From: a virus
Lineage: Duplodnaviria > Heunggongvirae > Uroviricota > Caudoviricetes
DNA length: 25,942 nucleotides
Virus record (IMG/VR): IMGVR_UViG_2563366768_000033
Direction: 5' to 3' (one strand)
This document shows, piece after piece, positions 1,369-12,192 of the stretch; the stretch's first letter is position 1, and each line of letters starts with the position of its first letter. Under the pieces are notes generated by a model. The model saw nothing but the letters and a program-made list of their open reading frames with translations, was not told the origin of the DNA and did not search any database. The position numbers and the translations under genes are program-made.

Positions 1369-1444
1369 GCCGATATAGCTCAGTTGGTAGAGCAGCGCAT
1401 TCGTAATGCGAAGGTCGTAGGTTCGACTCCTATTATCGGCACCA
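1369..1444 (+). tRNA. thrW: tRNA-Thr (anticodon CGT)
   Basis: 76-nt GCCGATATAGCTCAGTTGGTAGAGCAGCGCATTCGTAATGCGAAGGTCGTAGGTTCGACTCCTATTATCGGCACCA with encoded CCA; lies just 3' of proA as thrW does in E. coli. Confidence 0.95.
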
Positions 1445-1458
1445 TTTAAATCAATAAG

Positions 1459-2433
1459 TTACACATCATTAGTACCTTCCTTATTTTTTGACTGGGACAA
1501 ATTTGGGACCGATGGGTTCAGGATCGAGTCTATTTGCCGTGCGTGTTCGGTAAGGTGATTAGGTGCAAGGTGAGCATATCGACGAACCATTTCGATAGAC
1601 TCCCAGCCTCCCATTTCCTGTAACACTGACAACGGGACTCCGGCTTGAACCAGCCAACTTGCCCAGGTGTGTCTCAAGTCGTGAAATCTGAAATCATCAA
1701 TACCAGCCCGTCTCAGCGCCGCTTTCCAGGCTGTGTTTGCGTCATACCGCATCTTCCTTACTGTTGGCGCTTTCGTTCCGTCTGGTTTGGTACAGCTTTC
1801 CTTGTACACAAATACCCAACGGTGATGATTACCGATTTGTTTTTTCAATACGCGACATGCAGTATCATTCAGCGCAACGCCAATTGCGCGGTTTGATTTA
1901 CTCTCTTCCGGGTTTATCCATGCCACCCGGCGCTGCATATCTATTTGTTGCCATTCAAGGTTGATGATGTTCGAGCGTCTTAAGCCTGTTGCCAGTGCAA
2001 ATTCAACAACAGACTTTAATGGCTCCGGACATTCATCAATCAGCCTTTGTGCTTCATGGGGCTCCAGCCAGCGGAGCCGTTTATTCTTTGGTTGAGGCAC
2101 TTTAATAATTGGTGCCTTATCGAGCATTTTCCATTCACGCTCTGCGGCTCTTAGCAGGGCCTTTATAAATGAAAGATGCGTAGCCTTCGTTGCAACGGAC
2201 GCTGGTTTTGGCGTGTATTCTGGAACAGGTTTCCCTTTTTTTCTGCATGCTTCTGCCCTGAGTTTCCAGTTTTCCTCATGACGCCGGTTCGTCATTTTCT
2301 GCATTGCTGAATAAATTTTTGATTCAGTAATGTCTCTTAGTTGCATTCCTGCGAAATGTTGAAGCCAGAATCCGATCTGCTTTCCATTGAGCCTGTTTCT
2401 CTGCGCGACGTTCGCGGCGGCGTGTTTGTGCAT
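1459..2433 (-). CDS. phage tyrosine integrase, lambdoid IntD-like catalytic region; apparently 5'-truncated and fused to lambda N DNA
   Basis: 324-aa ORF with tyrosine-recombinase motifs ([17 protein letters not shown]...MVRRYAHL); adjacent to thrW and transcribed toward it. Its first 19 codons are lambda N sequence read in another frame, so the native arm-binding N-terminus (about 85 aa by comparison with recalled IntD) is missing. Confidence 0.8.
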
Positions 2434-2437
2434 CCAT
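2324..2437 (-). pseudogene. N: lambda N antiterminator, 5' fragment (first 20 codons) ending at a deletion junction
   Basis: Minus-strand frame reads [20 protein letters not shown], the arginine-rich N-terminus of lambda N, then diverges (DRILASTF...) and stops at 2324; located just downstream of nutL/PL as in lambda. Confidence 0.75.
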
Positions 2438-2594
2438 CTGGATTCTCCTGTTAGTTAGCTTTGGTTGTGTGTGGGAGTCGTAGTCCTGAACGAAAACACC
2501 CCGCAATGGCACATTGGCTGCTAATCCGGATTCGCACTTCCGGCCAATGCTTCGTTTCGTATCACACACACCAAAGCCTTCTGCTTTGAATGCT

Positions 2595-2625
2595 GCCCTT
2601 CTTCAGGGCTTAATTTTTAAGAGCA
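2595..2625 (-). promoter_or_regulatory. nutL (boxA 2617-2625, boxB hairpin 2595-2609)
   Basis: Minus strand reads TGCTCTTAAAAATTAAGCCCTGAAGAAGGGCAG, matching lambda nutL boxA-spacer-boxB (GCCCTGAAGAAGGGC stem-loop). Confidence 0.8.
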
Positions 2626-2654
2626 TCACCTTCATGGTGGTTAGTGCGTCCTGC

Positions 2655-2730
2655 TGATGTGCTTAGTATCACCGCTAGTGGTATTTGTGTCAACACCGCC
2701 AGAGGTAATTTATCACCGCAGATGGTTATC
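2655..2730 (-). promoter_or_regulatory. lambda PL promoter with operators OL1 (2667-2683), OL2 (2691-2707), OL3 (2711-2727)
   Basis: TATCACCGCTAGTGGTA, CAACACCGCCAGAGGTA and TATCACCGCAGATGGTT are 17-bp cI operator half-palindromes in lambda OL order; leftward -35 TTGACA (top-strand TGTCAA 2688-2693) and -10 GATACT (top-strand AGTATC 2665-2670). Confidence 0.85.
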
Positions 2731-2808
2731 TGTATGTTTTTTATATAGATTTATTTTTTGCAGGGTTGTGTGGCTTGGGAGGTGATCGAGAGATCAGAAT
2801 TGCGTTGT

Positions 2809-3198
2809 TTAGTGAGTTGCACCTATTAATTTTAAAATAAATACAATTGGTGTTTTTCGAGTTTTTCTTAACTCTTCATGCAGCTCCGTTCTCAGAATAT
2901 ATGATTTTTCGAGTTTGAAATTCTTGCGACCAGGCGTCTTATTGCCAGGCTCAGGAAGTGGAAGGCGTGTTTGAATGTCGAGTGGTGGACAGTCATAGAA
3001 GTAAATTCTATAAAGCTCAAGCGGTTCCCTACGTTCTTGTGATTGACGTTTTCCATTAAGATGGGAAAGAACCATTGACCATATTACTTTCATTATGCAT
3101 TGCGCAGTCAGTTCATGCTCGGCGAAGTGTTTACGATGCGTAGCATGAACACGCTGCATGAAAAAACCCGCATCAATTAAAATTGCTGCTTTCTTCAT
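2809..3198 (-). CDS. hypothetical protein (129 aa) in the slot lambda uses for rexAB between OL and cI; function unknown
   Basis: ORF MKKAAILIDAGFF... on the cI strand directly downstream of cI. Its N-terminus has a hydrophobic-IDxG start reminiscent of NYN/PIN-like nucleases but the motif set is incomplete. The last ~12 codons run into lambda-homologous DNA near 2845, so the 3' end may be junction-derived. Confidence 0.5.
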   Translation of the reverse strand: MKKAAILIDAGFFMQRVHATHRKHFAEHELTAQCIMKVIWSMVLSHLNGKRQSQERREPLELYRIYFYDCPPLDIQTRLPLPEPGNKTPGRKNFKLEKSYILRTELHEELRKTRKTPIVFILKLIGATH

Positions 3199-3325
3199 AA
3201 GAGTCCCAAAAAAATAGCCCAGAGCCGTTATGCAGATATTAACAATTGTCTGCGAACGGGGCTGGGCTTGGTTTAATTAATCTATGCCAAGTTGACTGTG
3301 CCGTCAACATAAAACTTACTTCCTA

Positions 3326-4042
<717 letters not shown>

Positions 4043-4049
4043 TTAAATC

Positions 4050-4116
4050 TATCACCGCAAGGGATAAATATCTAACACCGCGCGTGTTGACTACTTTACC
4101 TCTGGCGGTGATAATG
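4050..4116. promoter_or_regulatory. lambda OR region: OR3 (4050-4066), OR2 (4073-4089), OR1 (4097-4113), PRM and PR (-35 TTGACT 4087-4092, -10 GATAAT 4110-4115)
   Basis: TATCACCGCAAGGGATA / TAACACCGCGCGTGTTG / TACCTCTGGCGGTGATA between divergent cI and cro, followed by AAGGAGG and the cro ATG at 4140. Confidence 0.9.
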
Positions 4117-4130
4117 GTTGCATGTACTAA

Positions 4131-4340
<210 letters not shown>

Positions 4341-4347
4341 ATAACCC

Positions 4348-4379
4348 CGCTCTTACACATTCCAGCCCTGAAAAAGGGC
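4348..4379 (+). promoter_or_regulatory. nutR (boxA CGCTCTTA 4348-4355, boxB GCCCTGAAAAAGGGC 4365-4379)
   Basis: Direct match to the lambda nutR boxA/boxB arrangement between cro and cII. Confidence 0.8.
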
Positions 4380-4458
4380 ATCCAATTAAACCACACCTAT
4401 GGTGTATGCATTTATTTGCATACATTCAATCAATTGTTATCTAAGGAAATACTTACAT

Positions 4459-4752
4459 ATGGTTCGTGCAAACAAACGCAACGAGGCTCTACGAATCGAG
4501 AGTGCGTTGCTTAACAAAATCGCAATGCTTGGAACTGAGAAGACAGCGGAAGCTGTGGGAGTTGATAAGTCGCAGATCAGCAGGTGGAAGAGAGACTGGA
4601 TTCCAAAGTTCTCAATGCTGCTTGCTGTTCTTGAATGGGGGGTCGTTGACGACGACATGGCTCGATTGGCGCGACAAGTTGCTGCGATTCTCACCAATAA
4701 AAAACGCCCGGCGGCAACCGAGCGTTCTGAACAAATCCAGATGGAGTTCTGA
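4459..4752 (+). CDS. cII: CII transcriptional activator (97 aa)
   Basis: ATG at 4459 gives MVRANKRNEALRIESALLNKIAMLGTEKTAEAVGVDKSQISRWKRDWIPKFSMLLAVLEWGVVDDDMARLARQVAAILTNKKRPAATERSEQIQMEF, i.e. lambda CII; the ORF track's upstream extension (4399) is not used. Confidence 0.95.
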   Translation: MVRANKRNEALRIESALLNKIAMLGTEKTAEAVGVDKSQISRWKRDWIPKFSMLLAVLEWGVVDDDMARLARQVAAILTNKKRPAATERSEQIQMEF

Positions 4753-4774
4753 GGTCATTACTGGATCTATCAAC
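4697..4774 (-). ncRNA. oop: oop antisense RNA (about 77 nt) overlapping the cII 3' end
   Basis: Minus strand from 4774 reads GTTGATAGATCCAGTAATGACCTCAGAACTCCATCTGGATTTGTTCAGAACGCTCGGTTGCCGCCGGGCGTTTTTTATT, matching recalled lambda oop with its GC hairpin and U-tract terminator. Confidence 0.75.
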
Positions 4775-4784
4775 AGGAGTCATT

Positions 4785-5707
4785 ATGACAAATACAGCAA
4801 AAATACTCAACTTCGGCAGAGGTAACTTTGCCGGACAGGAGCGTAATGTGGCAGATCTCGATGATGGTTACGCCAGACTATCAAATATGCTGCTTGAGGC
4901 TTATTCGGGCGCAGATCTGACCAAGCGACAGTTTAAAGTGCTGCTTGCCATTCTGCGTAAAACCTATGGGTGGAATAAACCAATGGACAGAATCACCGAT
5001 TCTCAACTTAGCGAGATTACAAAGTTACCTGTCAAACGGTGCAATGAAGCCAAGTTAGAACTCGTCAGAATGAATATTATCAAGCAGCAAGGCGGCATGT
5101 TTGGACCAAATAAAAACATCTCAGAATGGTGTATCCCTCAAAACGAGGGAAAATCCCCTAAAACGAGGGATAAAACATCCCTCAAATTGGGGGATTGCTA
5201 TCCCTCAAATTGGGGGATTGCTATCCCTCAAAACAGGGGGACACAAAAGACACTATTACAAAAGAAAAAAGAAAAGATTATTCGTCCGAGAATTCTGGCG
5301 AATCCTCTGACCAGCCAGAAAACGATCTTTCTGTGGTTAAACCGGATGCTGCAATTCAGAGCGGCAGCAAGTGGGGAACAGCAGAAGACCTGACCGCCGC
5401 AGAGTGGATGTTTGACATGGTGAAGACCATCGCGCCATCAGCCAGAAAACCGAATTTTGCTGGGTGGGCTAACGATATCCGCCTGATGCGTGAACGTGAC
5501 GGACGTAACCACCGCGATATGTGTGTGCTTTTCCGCTGGGCCTGCCAGGACAACTTCTGGTCCGGTAACGTGCTGAGTCCGGCCAAACTCCGCGACAAGT
5601 GGACCCAGCTCGAAATCAACCGTAACAAGCAACAGGCAGGCGTGACAGCCAGCAAACCAAAACTCGACCTGACAAACACTGACTGGATTTACGGGGTGGA
5701 TTTATGA
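4785..5707 (+). pseudogene. O: lambda O replication initiator, frameshifted inside the ori iteron region
   Basis: N-terminal part (MTNTAKILNFGRGNFAG...ISEWCIPQNEGKSPKTRDKTSLKLGDCYPS) is in frame 0 and stops at 5393 after reading through unrelated sequence. The C-terminal O sequence (SKQGDTKDTITKEKRKDYSSENSG...DWIYGVDL) continues in frame +2 to the stop at 5705-5707. The shift coincides with a 23-bp tandem duplication at 5177-5222. Confidence 0.85.
5133..5240. repeat. ori-lambda iterons: five 18-bp O-binding repeats (5133, 5153, 5177, 5200, 5223) where lambda has four; third unit duplicated
   Basis: ATCCCTCAAAACGAGGGA, ATCCCCTAAAACGAGGGA, ATCCCTCAAATTGGGGGA (twice, each with TTGCT spacer = exact 23-bp tandem repeat 5177-5199/5200-5222), ATCCCTCAAAACAGGGGGA, followed by the AT-rich ori segment. 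Confidence 0.85.
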
Positions 5708-6015
5708 AAAACATCGCCGCACAGATGGTTAACTTTGACCGTGAGCAGATGCGTCGGATCGCCAACATCGATAACCAGGACATGACGATATCGGTCTGGG
5801 TCTTTCCTGATACTGATATTTCAGATGTATCGCGTGAGTTAATTGCGGCAATTAAACAGGGGTATCTAACAGTAAAAGCCGCCGGGGTATGGGCGGGGGG
5901 CATTGAAACACCTTCGGTGGAAACTCCATCGGAAGGCTCTAAATTTTTTGGTTTTGATATGGATAACGAATTCATCAGTGGTTTTGATGTAGGGGCATGG
6001 GGAGTATTACTCTGA
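5704..6015 (+). pseudogene. P: lambda P replication protein, first 21 codons, fused at a deletion junction to the 3' end of an unrelated (tail-module) reading frame
   Basis: ATG overlaps the O stop (ATGA) as in lambda; product begins MKNIAAQMVNFDREQMRRIAN (lambda P N-terminus) then switches to IDNQDMTISVWVFPDTDIS... and stops at 6013-6015. Confidence 0.7.
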
Positions 6016-6725
6016 TGGCGAAAAATGACTTTAAAGCGTTTGCAACTGATCGAAATGCCAATGTTATGTCGCAGGAGGAATGGGAAGCGTTGCCTGCGCT
6101 TATATCCGGATTTACAGCAGGGAAAGCATCCAGTGCGCAAGTCAATAAGGTTATTCGGCAGGCCAGCTTTATTGCTGCAGCTCTGGCCCAGTTTGTAAGT
6201 GATAAAACGCAACGGGATGTGCTTGATAATGGTGATCTGCCCGGTTTTGTTGAATTGCTGGGATCGGGGTTTGCTGTTGAATACCTGAGCCGCAAGAATC
6301 CGTTTGGCGATATCAAATCGGACGGCACGGTGAAAACGGCTCTTCAAAACCTTGGTTTGGGAGAAGCGGCAAAACGGGATGTGGGGACAGGGGAAAATCA
6401 GATACCGGACATGGCCTCTTTTGCCAGTGGTAATGGATGGATGAAATTACCCAACGGGAAAATCCTGCAATATGGTCGTGGTGCGGTTACGCCGACATTA
6501 TCGACGCAAACAATGAGAATTACATTCAGCATCCCTTTCCCCAAAAAAGCGGACTGCGCCATGCTTACTCATTCTGGTGATGGCGGTGCGCCTTTAGGCG
6601 CTGGGCGAGGGTTCGTGATGACTGCAGAAGGCCCAACGTTAACCGGCTTTAATTCTGCTTACAGAACGTCATCAACCAGCGACACGGTATCGATGAATTA
6701 CAGTTGGTGGGCTGTTGGTGAGTAA
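6015..6725 (+). CDS. side tail fibre protein, variable C-terminal segment (StfP-like); alternative start 5997
   Basis: Product [61 protein letters not shown]... is characteristic of e14/Mu/P1-type tail fibre variable regions; followed by a tail-fibre assembly gene and an inverted second set. Confidence 0.7.
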
Positions 6726-6736
6726 TTTTATTCAGG

Positions 6737-7189
6737 GTGATTTATATGGACGAATATGTTTATAGCGCAAGGCATAATGCTTTTTTCCCTGTGGATATGA
6801 TTGATAAATATAAATCAGAGGGATGGGATTTATCAGACGCTAAGGAAGTAAATCAAAATATTATCAGTGAGTTTATGGCTGAACCGCCACAAGGAAAAAT
6901 CCGTATTGCCGGAGATGATGGGCTGCCTGCGTGGGCAGATATTCCTCCACCCACGCATGAAGAGCTTATTGAAATTACTGAATCAGAAAGACAGCTACTA
7001 ATTAACCAGGCCAACGAATACATGAACAGTAAGCAATGGCCCGGTAAAGCGGCTATTGGTCGTCTGAAAGGTGACGAACTGACGCAATATAATTTGTGGC
7101 TGGATTATCTGGACGCACTGGAGCTGGTCGATACTTCCGGTGCGCCAGATATTGAATGGCCTACGCCTCCGGCAGTTCAGGCCAGATGA
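6737..7189 (+). CDS. tail fibre assembly protein (Tfa)
   Basis: 150-aa ORF directly after stf; C-terminus ...LTQYNLWLDYLDALELVDTSGAPDIEWPTPP is the conserved Tfa tail, mirrored by the convergent paralogue at 7161-7754. Confidence 0.8.
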   Translation: MIYMDEYVYSARHNAFFPVDMIDKYKSEGWDLSDAKEVNQNIISEFMAEPPQGKIRIAGDDGLPAWADIPPPTHEELIEITESERQLLINQANEYMNSKQWPGKAAIGRLKGDELTQYNLWLDYLDALELVDTSGAPDIEWPTPPAVQAR

Positions 7190-7754
7190 CATCCGGCGCG
7201 GTGCTGGTATCTGTTGCCGTCACCGCGTCAATGTAATCCAGCACGGCGTTAAGTCGGGTTGTTTCTGCCTGAGTCAGTTTCCGTCCGGCCTGTAACTTCA
7301 GCTGAATCAGACTAATGGAAGCCATTGCTGCATCAATCAGTGATTGGCGCTGTGCTTCTGCCGCGTCTACTGCGGCACTGTGTTGTGCCTCAGTGTCTGT
7401 CACCCATTTCTCACCATCCCATTTATCGTATGGCGTTAACGGTGAAATCGTGACATAACCGTCTTTGATGGCACCGATATAATCCACTGTAACAGCTGCG
7501 CCATTTTCGATTGAGTAAACAGTCTCATTGCGATGGTCTTCTTCATGGCTCCATCCCTTACCTGTAAATACTGCCACTCTTCCCGGAATGTTTTCGCCAG
7601 GGTCAATACCAGTGGAACAGGCGGGCATACTTACGCCAGTATTAATATATTCATCAGACCAGCCCGTATACTCAGATGTTTCAGCATCATAATAAAAACA
7701 ACGCATATCGCCCGGCACTGTAGCCAGCCCATTTTCATCAAAAACAGGTTTCAT
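7161..7754 (-). CDS. tail fibre assembly protein, alternative copy (TfaE-like) in inverted orientation
   Basis: 197-aa ORF MKPVFDENGLATVPGDMRCFYYDAETSEYTGW... ending ...LNAVLDYIDAVTATDTSTAPDVIWPELPEA; convergent and overlapping with the plus-strand tfa, as in G/P invertible segments. Confidence 0.8.
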   Translation of the reverse strand: MKPVFDENGLATVPGDMRCFYYDAETSEYTGWSDEYINTGVSMPACSTGIDPGENIPGRVAVFTGKGWSHEEDHRNETVYSIENGAAVTVDYIGAIKDGYVTISPLTPYDKWDGEKWVTDTEAQHSAAVDAAEAQRQSLIDAAMASISLIQLKLQAGRKLTQAETTRLNAVLDYIDAVTATDTSTAPDVIWPELPEA

Positions 7755-8251
7755 TATTTAGCCCTCACCAGAAAGTTAAATGCAATATTTCGCGGTCTGA
7801 CTGCAACAAAATTCACACCATCACCCACAGAGTTACTGGTGAAATTAAATCGTGAAAATCCTGGCTGATTTCCGGCGATGCCATCATGAAAGTTAATTGC
7901 GTGTCCCGCACCTTCGCCTATATTCCCGGCAAACTGAGAAAAGTTTGTAGCTGCCTGCCAGCTTAATAATTCGCGACCACCGTCTGCACCTCGCCCGTCA
8001 TCCCAGATACGAATGAAATCACCGCGGGCTTCAGGTAATACCAGCGAAGGAAACACTTTCGCCAGCACAGGATAATCAGTGGCAGAGAATTTCGCGCCGT
8101 TGAACTTCAAAAACACCATACAGGACCAGCTGTCGATTACAGTATTTGGCATTGCAGCGGACGGCCAGAAGAACGGAACGCCAATAGCTGGAGCACCTTC
8201 TCCCAAACCAACGTTTATGAAAATGCAGAAATAACGAGCAAATGGCATCAT
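7754..8251 (-). CDS. alternative tail fibre C-terminal segment (StfE-like), currently in the off orientation
   Basis: 165-aa minus-strand ORF abutting the pin upstream region with no constant tail-fibre N-terminal part attached; position equivalent to stfE of e14. Confidence 0.65.
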   Translation of the reverse strand: MMPFARYFCIFINVGLGEGAPAIGVPFFWPSAAMPNTVIDSWSCMVFLKFNGAKFSATDYPVLAKVFPSLVLPEARGDFIRIWDDGRGADGGRELLSWQAATNFSQFAGNIGEGAGHAINFHDGIAGNQPGFSRFNFTSNSVGDGVNFVAVRPRNIAFNFLVRAK

Positions 8252-8277
8252 TCCTGCTTTTGTCAGGGAGATCTACC

Positions 8278-8832
8278 ATGCTTATTGGCTATGTACGTGT
8301 GTCAACAAATGACCAGAACACAGATCTACAACGTAATGCGCTGAACTGTGCAGGATGCGAGCTGATTTTTGAAGACAAGATAAGCGGTACAAAGTCCGAA
8401 AGGCCGGGACTGAAAAAACTGCTCAGGACATTATCGGCAGGTGACACTCTGGTTGTCTGGAAACTGGATCGGCTGGGGCGCAGTATGCGGCATCTGGTCA
8501 TTCTGGTTGAGGAGTTGCGCGAACGTGGCGTTAATTTTCGCAGCCTGACGGATGCTATTGATACCAGTACCCCAATGGGGCGCTTTTTCTTTCATGTGAT
8601 GGGGGCCCTGGCTGAAATGGAACGAGAACTGATTGTTGAACGAACAAAAGCTGGACTGGAAGCTGCTCGCGCACAGGGACGAATTGGTGGACGTCGTCCC
8701 AAACTTACACCAGAACAATGGGCGCAGGCCGGACGATTAATTGCAGCAGGAATTCCTCGCCAGAAGGTAGCGATCATCTATGATGTTGGTGTATCGACAC
8801 TGTATAAGAAGTTTCCGGCCGGAGATAAATGA
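8278..8832 (+). CDS. pin: serine DNA invertase (Pin/Gin/Hin family), 184 aa
   Basis: From ATG at 8278: MLIGYVRVSTNDQNTDLQRNALNCAGCELIFEDKISGTKSERPGLKKLLRTLSAGDTLVVWKLDRLGRSMRHLV... with catalytic Ser in VRVSTNDQ and C-terminal HTH; placed directly after the inverted stf/tfa pair. Confidence 0.9.
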   Translation: MLIGYVRVSTNDQNTDLQRNALNCAGCELIFEDKISGTKSERPGLKKLLRTLSAGDTLVVWKLDRLGRSMRHLVILVEELRERGVNFRSLTDAIDTSTPMGRFFFHVMGALAEMERELIVERTKAGLEAARAQGRIGGRRPKLTPEQWAQAGRLIAAGIPRQKVAIIYDVGVSTLYKKFPAGDK

Positions 8833-8889
8833 AACCGTAGCACGTCGTATGCAAGATCGTGCTGCGGTTTATGCTTACCACTTGAAGAT

Positions 8890-9759
<870 letters not shown>

Positions 9760-9842
9760 CTAACCCTTTGAATTTACATAGCGCAAAAAGATACCTTTCC
9801 TCATAATGTGAGCTAATTTTATGTTTCGTTTGATGATCGGGT

Positions 9843-9904
9843 CGGTCTCGAAAACCGGAGTAGGGGCAACTCTACCGGGGGTTCAAATCCCCCTCTCTCC
9901 GCCA
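9843..9904 (+). other. 3' fragment (about 62 nt) of tRNA-Ser serU; attachment-site remnant
   Basis: CGGTCTCGAAAACCGGAGTAGGGGCAACTCTACCGGGGGTTCAAATCCCCCTCTCTCCGCCA matches the serU tRNA from the anticodon arm to the CCA end; the 5' third of the tRNA is absent. Confidence 0.8.
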
Positions 9905-10486
9905 CTTTATCAATGACTTATCTCCCGACTTCCCGTCTTGCTTTTCCTAAACAGAACAATCGTAGAATATTCTTGAAGGGTTAGATCGTCACTGTTTTCT
10001 GTTCGATACTGTGACATTCAGCACTTGATTCGCTATGGATCTGACAGGAAGGTTTTGAGCGAAAATCTGCAGTTATTCAGTCGTTTTCTTATCGGTCACC
10101 ATTATTCTTTTAGACATTGATCCTACAAAGCTGCCGCAAAGTTGGTGGTGGGAACTGAAGTTGCGTAGAGAAGGGGTCAATACCCGGAGGCAAACATGGG
10201 CTGGCAAAAGTGTAGCGGTATTAGGCGCAGCTATTTAGCCTAGTTATGTTTTATGAAAACTTGATATCATATAAGTGTCTTACTTATTGGCTGTAAATAA
10301 GTTTTTCCTAAGGAATTGTTTCTTGAGTATCATTTGTAACTGTAACGGAATTTATAATCCTTTGCTTTATTGTTACGGTATTTTTTATCACACCCTATTT
10401 TTAGTGGTTTTTTATACTGAAGTTTGGCAAAGTGAACTTTATATACATATACTTCATCCTGGTTTCAGTTAAATTGGGGGGATGAT

Positions 10487-11230
10487 ATGGCAACTACATG
10501 TTCAGTTATATTGATTTTGGAGTCCTTTGATGTTTATTTCGGAAAAGAGAGTGTGTTTCTGGAGAGAGGTTCATCTGTACTTGTCGACTCTAGCTCTAGA
10601 GATTTTTTCCTGACATATCCTGAAAGAGTGATAGTGGCGGATTTTGGCGCTGAGTTTATTAGTCGCTATTTGAAAGCTAATAACTTAAGGGATATTTCTG
10701 ATTGTAGGGAATATCCATCTTATTTAAAAATAAACTTTGCTGACTTCAGTTTAATTAAAGGATTAATTAGTTGGGCTAATCACTGTGCTGAATACATAGA
10801 AATTTTTGATGAGTCTATTGCTTTTACATGTCTCTCTGCATTTTCTTCTGAAAAACAATTTGGAGTATTTCTGTTTGGATGTTTGAAAAGCACAGGGGCT
10901 AAAGTTAAAACGATTATTCATACGGATTTATCTGCACCATGGCGTCTTAAGGATATATCATCAAGATTATATCTCAGCGAAAGTTTACTAAAGAGGAAAT
11001 TGAAAGAAGAGGGGGTATCATTCAGTAAGATCATACTTGATGAGAGGATGCAAATGGCTGAATATTTACTCAGCACTCGTTGTTATCCTATTAGTAAAGT
11101 AGCTAAGGTCTGTGGTTATGCCAGTGTCTCATACTTTACTTATGTATTTAGACGTTATTTTGGTGTTTCTCCAAGTCAATACTCTCAGAGGAGTTCAGAA
11201 AGTAAAATTCTTACTCACCAGGGAATCTGA
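10487..11230 (+). CDS. AraC/XylS-family transcriptional regulator (AppY/Rns-like)
   Basis: 247-aa product with C-terminal dual HTH (WRLKDISSRLYLSESLLKRKLKEEGVSFSKIILDERMQMAEYLL...KVAKVCGYASVSYFTYVFRRYFGVSPSQY); AT-rich gene and upstream region; GGGGG Shine-Dalgarno before the ATG. Confidence 0.75.
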   Translation: MATTCSVILILESFDVYFGKESVFLERGSSVLVDSSSRDFFLTYPERVIVADFGAEFISRYLKANNLRDISDCREYPSYLKINFADFSLIKGLISWANHCAEYIEIFDESIAFTCLSAFSSEKQFGVFLFGCLKSTGAKVKTIIHTDLSAPWRLKDISSRLYLSESLLKRKLKEEGVSFSKIILDERMQMAEYLLSTRCYPISKVAKVCGYASVSYFTYVFRRYFGVSPSQYSQRSSESKILTHQGI

Positions 11231-11271
11231 TCATTGTTCTTGCCCCCTTATTTCCAGACAGGGGGGGTATC

Positions 11272-11720
11272 TTAAGTTAACGTTACCCGCTGACGTCGAT
11301 ATTCTCGCGGAGAGCGATAACCCAACGCACTGTGCGGATGGTTTTCATTGTAATGTTCGATCGCCACTGCAAGATTATGCAATGCCGTTCTTACATTCGG
11401 TTTCGGCATGAACGCGATGTAGTCTTCCTTCATCGTTTTCACGAACCTTTCTGCAATTCCATTACTCTGAGGACTGCTGATTGCCGTTGTGCAGGGCTCC
11501 AGATTCAACTCTCTGGCGAACTGCCGTGTTTCATGCGCTCTATACGCTGAACCGTTATCTGTCAGCCACTGGATGGACTGTTCCGGTACTTTATCGCCAA
11601 AGCGTTTTTCTATCGCTCCTAACATGACATCCTGCACTGTCGCTTTATCGTAACCTCCCGTGCTTGCGGCCCAGTCTATGGCTTCACGATCGCAACAGTC
11701 CAGGGCGATTCATCTGGGCC
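11272..11720 (-). mobile_element. IS2-family (IS3 group) transposase orfB, 3' fragment only
   Basis: Minus-strand translation ...[72 protein letters not shown]...[14 protein letters not shown] parallels the C-terminal integrase-core region of IS2 InsD as recalled; no orfA, no 5' half and no terminal inverted repeats seen. Confidence 0.7.
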
Positions 11721-11984
11721 AATCCTTGCTCATAACAGGCATTCACTTCAGTCATGGCAGAAAGGTATGCATGCTGGAGAAGTCGTGAAAGAAAAGAAGA
11801 CTGCTGCGCCGTTTGTCGTCACGTTTATCTTCATTGGCTATGCAAGTCGTAATACAAGGTGGGACAAAACTGAGACACATAAGGCCTCGCAATGGCTTGC
11901 AAGGCTTTACATGTTTTGATGTGGTGGGACGTGTGAGCGCAGTGTTGATGGGGTAATGCTTTGAATTAGAAGCGGATTCTTATA

Positions 11985-12030
11985 ATTCGTAATGCGAAGG
12001 TCGTAGGTTCGACTCCTATTATCGGCACCA
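11985..12030 (+). other. direct repeat of the thrW 3' end (46 nt); junction between the two stacked elements
   Basis: ATTCGTAATGCGAAGGTCGTAGGTTCGACTCCTATTATCGGCACCA is identical to thrW 1399-1444; followed 160 bp later by a P4-type integrase gene. Confidence 0.85.
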
Positions 12031-12192
12031 TCTCAACTTCCTCAAACGTCCGTATTAGTCCATAAAATCTCTGATTTATAACATTTTTTATTCTTTTAAG
12101 TCCATAGTAGTCCGTAACCATCCAGTAGAATCCGGTACTGAATGTGTATAGGATTGTGTATATGTTCCTGTTCGGTCTGGATTCCTATACAC

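Follow-up and report, generated by a model that had tools for sequence, protein, structure and literature searches.

The window, that is, the whole stretch of 25,942 nucleotides analysed here, carries a deletion scar in the cryptic lambda-like prophage Sp1 (CP-933H) of Escherichia coli O157:H7, in which codon 20 of a lambda-type N gene is joined to codon 83 of an integrase gene. The identity of the locus is confirmed, and the best explanation, which we consider very probable, is that an illegitimate deletion in an SfI-like prophage at thrW produced the non-excising left end of Sp1. The N–int scar is an already described defect of this prophage: the integrase gene is a pseudogene in RefSeq, and Sp1 has been reported as Int-defective, devoid of Xis and non-circularising (PMC2669165). 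What is added here is the base-level breakpoint and the broken core-binding domain of the integrase. The breakpoint is not spelled out in the accessible part of the PMC2669165 text, and a literature search on the CP-933H integrase returned no paper discussing the junction. The scar is an ordinary one and raises no new biological question, but it gives a base-level explanation of why Sp1/CP-933H stays locked in the O157:H7 chromosome.

The window starts with proA (1–1254), which is followed by the tRNA gene thrW. A 2,071-nt query across the junction is 100% identical to the chromosomes of Sakai, EDL933 and many other O157:H7 strains, and the gene order proA–thrW–prophage Sp1 (CP-933H)–Sp2 is the same as in Sakai, the position from thrW to Sp2 being matched. 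The curated Sakai record names the stretch ‘prophage Sp1, lambda-like phage’, and the P4-like Sp2 comes next. In the same curated RefSeq record the integrase ORF is ECs_0271 ‘intD’ and bears a pseudogene flag, while an overlapping 81-aa ORF, which contains the N' stub described below, is ECs_0272, a ‘phage early gene regulator’. The features on which the argument depends are as follows:

1369–1444, plus strand: thrW, tRNA-Thr (CGU), found by ARAGORN and annotated as thrW in Sakai; the bacterial attachment site
1399–1445, no strand: attL core, a 47-nt direct repeat shared with attR that matches the SfI attP core (SfI 4232–4278)
1459–2376, minus strand: integrase-derived DNA of SfIV/SfI/P22 type, codons 83–387 of 387 plus the stop codon, with the catalytic domain intact
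1459–2433, minus strand: annotated chimeric int ORF of 324 aa (pseudogene intD, ECs_0271), the first 19 residues of which are N DNA in the +1 frame
2324–2437, minus strand: N' stub ORF of 37 aa from the ORF list, 20 N residues and then 17 from int DNA in the wrong frame
2376–2377, minus strand: deletion junction, …GGAAAGCAG / ATCGGATTC…, placed by alignments, with BLAST end-points at 2377 on both sides
2377–2437, minus strand: lambda-type N codons 1–20 plus one base, 61/61 nt identical to lambda and ev099 N, encoding the arginine-rich boxB-binding motif
2595–2625, minus strand: nutL, with boxA TGCTCTTAA (2625–2617) and boxB GCCCTGAAGAAGGGC (2609–2595), from alignment to lambda nutL
2665–2727, minus strand: PL with OL1, OL2 and OL3, the −35 element at 2693–2688 and the −10 element at 2670–2665, from promoter scan and lambda alignment
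3326–4039, minus strand: full-length lambda-type cI repressor gene, 237 aa, from the ORF list and annotated as CI
11985–12031, no strand: attR core, with an SfI-like P arm to its left (11860–11984)

The repeats at 1399–1450 and 11985–12036, which form repeat family D2 of the window, are 96% identical, and the interval 1445–11985 contained no further att copy in the repeat analysis. By BLAST, the attR region (11860–12031) is 97% (97.1%) identical to SfI 4107–4278. The cI DNA is 96–97% identical to lambda and SfI, and its product controls PL.

On the minus strand, positions 2437 to 2377 read ATGGATGCACAAACACGCCGCCGCGAACGTCGCGCAGAGAAACAGGCTCAATGGAAAGCAG, which corresponds to codons 1–20 of lambda and ev099 N plus the first base (G) of codon 21. 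The match to lambda runs on upstream over nutL, PL and OL, with 92% identity over 475 nt (97% for ev099; E = 0). PL was recovered by promoter scan at 2693–2665 as TTGACA-17-GATACT; boxB is the same as in lambda, boxA has one substitution (TGCTCTTAA vs lambda CGCTCTTAA), and the alignment places one substitution each in OL1 and OL2. The initial annotation had described the first 20 residues of N preceded by an intact nutL and PL/OL, and had named absence of N homology as grounds for abandoning the idea; the homology is there, and the upstream elements are as described up to these single substitutions. The N frame continues to a TGA at 2326–2324, and the interval first reported as the fusion, 2324–2437, is exactly this stub ORF. 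Residues 1–20 of the stub are identical to lambda N and supply its N-terminal arginine-rich motif (residues 1–22 in lambda N), with a Pfam N36 match over residues 2–21 (E = 3.8e-10). The central NusA-binding and C-terminal RNAP-binding regions of lambda N (residues about 34–107) are absent; in lambda it is these parts that are encoded by the lost 3' four-fifths of the gene. Because int DNA is read out of frame after residue 20 and a stop follows 17 residues on, the stub is predicted not to be a functional N, and the boxB-binding arginine-rich motif would be its sole surviving part.

Homology switches at ...AATGGAAAGCAG / ATCGGATTCTGG..., with lambda-type N before the break and SfIV-type int from 2376 onwards. 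Aligning this region to N and to a full-length integrase gene, the check suggested at the outset, places the breakpoint at 2377/2376 and upholds the original proposal that N codon 20 had been fused to the interior of an integrase gene. Both parents have the G at 2377, which constitutes the whole of the exact microhomology; the sequences flanking it are similar but not identical (AAAGCAG in N vs AAAGCCGG in int). Because the exact microhomology amounts to only 1 nt, the mechanism of the break is not identifiable.

Downstream of the break, from 2376 to the stop codon at 1459, the DNA is 98.4–99.1% identical to int of SfIV, SfI, SfV, SfII and phi458. It belongs to the thrW-specific integrase genes of the P22 type (P22/DLP12 ‘IntD’/SfV); SfIV Int has 387 aa, and the retained part begins at Ile83. 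The 305 retained codons contain no stop and no frameshift, and only one residue differs from SfIV Int. The annotated ORF starts at the second ATG of ATGGATG, 4 nt inside N, and enters int in frame after 19 codons; the ORF list and the protein alignment thus agree with the earlier reading that its first 19 residues are N DNA translated out of frame. The catalytic domain is recognized by Pfam (PF00589 at positions 121–292, E = 2.4e-47), and the family-invariant columns R215/R216, H314, R317 and Y349 (numbering of a full-length aligned member), which presumably serve in catalysis, are kept. A search of the 305 int-derived residues against 5.8 billion proteins returned thousands of homologues; the best 120, down to 70% identity, are almost all 380–388 aa long, mostly 387. 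The native N-terminus, MS[IL]FRRG..WYAS...P.G.R.K.SLGT..KR.A.E.HD, hardly varies among the 19 full-length sequences aligned, the most distant of which are at 70% identity. A full-length homologue beginning like the window ORF would have spoken against a chimera, but the family begins with MS[IL]FRRG..WYAS, whereas the window ORF starts with MHKHAAAN and has no counterpart to the conserved N-terminus.

An AlphaFold (AF2) model of a full-length homologue is confident for residues 1–160 only (mean pLDDT 56 overall, with the catalytic domain unresolved). The model begins with a three-stranded sheet (3–6, 9–15, 21–25) and a helix (31–51), with pLDDT of about 70–88, a predicted layout like that of the arm-binding domain of lambda Int. 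The core-binding helices follow at 59–69, 76–90, 100–108, 113–129 and 143–164. The best Foldseek matches in PDB are to full-length lambda Int (1z1b, 1z1g, 5j0n), with a probability of 0.98–0.99 and TM-scores of only about 0.2. Among curated Pfam and NCBIfam families, no arm-binding family matched residues 1–82, DUF6538 being the sole match and below threshold, and in a PDB sequence search and in BLASTP against lambda Int the alignment was limited to the catalytic domain. The arm-binding assignment accordingly draws on the AF2 model and the weak Foldseek match to full-length lambda Int. The window ORF lacks residues 1–82 of the 387-aa family and with them the arm-type DNA-binding domain. The core-binding helical domain is also incomplete by the model: helix 59–69 is gone, and the break at residue 83 falls inside helix 76–90. 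The initial annotation had proposed loss of the arm-binding N-terminus of the integrase; that loss stands, but the model indicates a larger one, in which half of the second core-binding helix would have gone as well as the whole of the first and the arm-binding domain.

Lambda Int C65 (residues 65–356) likewise lacks the arm-binding domain. Fragments of this type retain core-site binding and topoisomerase or Holliday junction-resolving activity, but do not carry out arm-dependent attP × attB or attL × attR recombination. The Sp1 remnant differs from C65 in that, according to the model, its break lies in the second core-binding helix, the first helix is gone, and 19 unrelated residues are added, so that it is probably not even a clean ‘core-only’ integrase. 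Furthermore, N' directly abuts int codon 83, leaving no adjacent xis, a gene that overlaps the start of int in SfIV, SfI and the O55:H7 strain CB9615. The recombination region, which the initial annotation had listed as lost together with xis, is indeed absent here and lies between int and N in SfI and CB9615.

The closest complete counterpart of this arrangement is the Shigella flexneri serotype-converting phage SfI (NC_027339), which has the same thrW att/int module (int 98.9% identical to the window), a lambda-type N (5' end 97.7% identical) and lambda-type cI, cro, cII, O and P (97.5% identical from cI to O). Its left arm is intact, with int, xis, exo, bet, gam, kil, cIII, ral and N, and, as a complete phage, it also has gtr genes and rexAB. 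In Sp1, by comparison, the 5.7-kb interval from int to N is missing, a truncated NYN-domain gene takes the place of rexAB, and hardly any late genes are left. On the strength of these alignments, attL, int and the P arm of attR form one SfI-type att/int module. Three other candidate ancestors were rejected. Prophages of the ev099 type have the NYN–PL–N module closest to the Sp1 immunity region, intact in 60 genomes, but the one inspected uses lambda int at the lambda site ybhC. In the sister lineage, O55:H7 CB9615 has at thrW a complete lambdoid prophage (int–xis–...–exo–bet–gam–kil–cIII–ral–sieB–N), but this is a different phage with an int about 91% identical and another repressor. Finally, phi458 shares the int and also has a lambdoid left arm, but its immunity differs.

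The ancestor would thus have been a lambda-immunity lambdoid prophage at thrW with the SfI layout, attL–int–xis–...exo–bet–gam–kil–cIII–ral–N–nutL–PL/OL–...–cI–cro–cII–O–P. An illegitimate deletion would have joined N codon 20 (plus 1 nt) to int codon 83; the corresponding points in SfI, 5210 and 10905, are 5,695 bp apart, which puts its size at about 5.7 kb in SfI co-ordinates. At one end such a deletion would have taken tL1 and the 3' four-fifths of N, and at the other the first 82 int codons; between them, the ral, cIII and kil genes, the recombination genes and xis would have gone, the last together with the PI promoter, which in lambda is located inside that gene. The product would be the left end of Sp1/CP-933H, a prophage that keeps both att sites and whose cI/PL switch works, but that, without Xis and with a crippled Int, cannot excise.

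Experimental data on Sp1 are consistent with this outcome. Asadulghani et al. (2009) scored Sp1 as repressor-positive and antirepressor-positive, with defective (‘D’) integration and replication and no (‘-’) excision (PMC2669165). They described it as a highly degraded lambdoid prophage in which all late functions are absent and which does not circularise, replicate or become packaged; the excision PCR suggested in the initial annotation has in effect been published there, since no Sp1 circularisation product was obtained (PMC2669165, Table 2). The residual early genes are nevertheless clearly induced by mitomycin C (MMC), whereas the prophage is not amplified (PMC2669165). Other int-defective ‘grounded’ prophages of Sakai, namely Sp3, Sp11 and Sp12, are locked by disruption of int and/or xis, but in the available portion of PMC2669165 none of them is described as an in-line fusion of a PL-proximal N start to int. 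Sp1 is locked in because it has no Xis and its Int is without the arm-binding domain and part of the core-binding domain; despite this lock, both att sites and a working repressor switch are kept.

The MMC response also fits the expected transcription of the scar. A promoter and terminator scan found no terminator-like site on the minus strand between PL and thrW (1369–2693). Because PL/OL is intact, no terminator-like hairpin intervenes and tL1 is deleted, PL transcripts are expected to cross N' and int' and to go on, in antisense, over thrW and proA. Cleavage of cI would let PL fire, and the transcript, running through N' and int', would give the 37-aa N' peptide and possibly some of the Int83–387 chimera before continuing antisense across thrW and into proA. 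The Shine–Dalgarno sequence of N is spaced 7 nt from the N start codon and 11 nt from the ATG of the int frame, which could allow some translation of the chimera. Both the N' and the Int' proteins are presumably inactive in their original functions. Such read-through from PL into int' would agree with the induction of Sp1 early genes by MMC (PMC2669165).

A 120-nt junction probe has full-length, 100% identical matches in 215 of 5,426 complete E. coli genomes. All the carriers that were sampled are O157:H7 or of O157:H7 type, and in the remaining complete genomes the probe matches either the int half only or the N half only. The junction can thus serve as a lineage marker. In many O157 genomes PGAP applies the name ‘site-specific integrase’ with no pseudogene flag, and the ORF that automatic annotation so names in most O157 genomes is a chimeric pseudogene. 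O157:H7 strain SS TX 313-1 (NZ_CP038302, 4577840–4605907) does not have the junction and carries at thrW a CPS-53/SfV-like prophage with a full-length int and xis, which suggests that Sp1 has been replaced there, either entirely or at its left end. In the match list, strain 117 (NZ_CP028668) resembles SS TX 313-1.

How many events produced the scar can be weighed with the same comparisons. The initial annotation spoke of one deletion, and a single event is the most parsimonious account and a likely one: it is modelled by SfI, with its 5,695-bp interval, and one deletion is sufficient because SfI natively couples the same att/int module to lambda-type N and cI. It is nevertheless something that we infer, as no direct pre-deletion allele was found in the genomes searched. 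The scar might alternatively have arisen in several steps, or by recombination between two elements at thrW, e.g. tandem SfV/CPS-53-like and lambda-like prophages. The site is certainly busy, with a different, full-int prophage at thrW in SS TX 313-1 and Sp2 in tandem with Sp1, and Sp1 itself shows at least three other rearrangements (the 576-bp NYN deletion, the 23-bp O iteron duplication and the P'/tail-fibre junction). Moreover, besides the lack of an exact pre-deletion allele, SfI has rexAB where Sp1 has the truncated NYN-domain gene, the NYN/lambda-N module of ev099-like prophages goes with lambda int at ybhC, and the CB9615 prophage at thrW is another phage. We nevertheless regard a multi-step or two-element origin as unlikely, given that a single SfI-type module accounts for attL, int and the attR P arm, that its native partners in SfI are lambda-type N and cI, and that no third att copy lies between the two att cores.

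The remaining readings concern what the remnant is or does now. If it were kept for function, the 37-aa N' might act as a decoy against superinfecting phages with lambda nut sites, or the arm-less Int might interfere with phages integrating at thrW. A co-opted scar would work through the SOS response and PL, the boxB-binding peptide titrating nut sites, the Int fragment perhaps poisoning integration at thrW and the transcript running antisense through thrW and proA. Such a role would be in keeping with the intact cI, OL/PL, nutL boxB and N codons 1–20, with 305 open int codons one residue off SfIV Int, with the response of Sp1 early genes to MMC (PMC2669165) and with the 100% conservation of the junction among O157 genomes in the match list. 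However, in so young a clone conservation says nothing about selection, the int remnant is predicted to be broken inside a core-binding helix, the start codon of the int frame is sub-optimally spaced, and there is no comparative or experimental signal for decoy or interference activity; both retention for function and the co-option scheme therefore strike us as very improbable. Still less can be said for taking the N-terminus of the 324-aa ORF as native to a genuine integrase variant, or the junction as a sequencing or assembly artefact. The unflagged PGAP name would favour the former, but this pair of readings is refuted by the origin of the first 19 codons in lambda N DNA out of frame, by a family of 387 aa with a conserved N-terminus that the window ORF lacks, and by the presence of the same junction in 215 complete, independently assembled genomes, because of which it is not an assembly artefact; the curated Sakai RefSeq likewise has a pseudogene here. 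A deletion scar in an SfI-like thrW prophage remains the preferred interpretation.

Several further rearrangements were seen elsewhere in Sp1. The NYN-domain gene, which replaces rexAB between cI and PL, is cut to 129 aa, vs 285 aa in ev099, by the loss of 576 bp at about 2851 (ORF 2809–3198, minus strand), present in ev099-like prophages (ev099-like locus 11349–11924). In the O gene/ori region (5132–5239) there are five iterons vs four in a lambda-type origin, and a perfect 23-bp tandem duplication, ATCCCTCAAATTGGGGGATTGCT, occupies 5177–5199 and 5200–5222. This duplication frameshifts O into ORFs 4785–5393 and 5195–5707, which accounts for the annotation of O as a pseudogene. The window has a second large deletion junction within 5704–6015, with the break at about 5767: lambda-type O–P homology ends about 21 codons into P (MKNIAAQMVNFDREQMRRIAN...) and is followed by tail-fibre and tail-fibre-assembly genes and a Pin invertase, the nin, Q, lysis, head and tail genes all being missing. 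At the right end, the segment 9842–11708 encodes an AraC-family regulator, contains the remains of an IS3-family element and shares 99% identity with the b-region by attP of ev099 and PhiR70_1; from these matches, the SfI-type att/int beside an ev099/PhiR70_1-like right end would represent a module swap at the att-proximal boundary.
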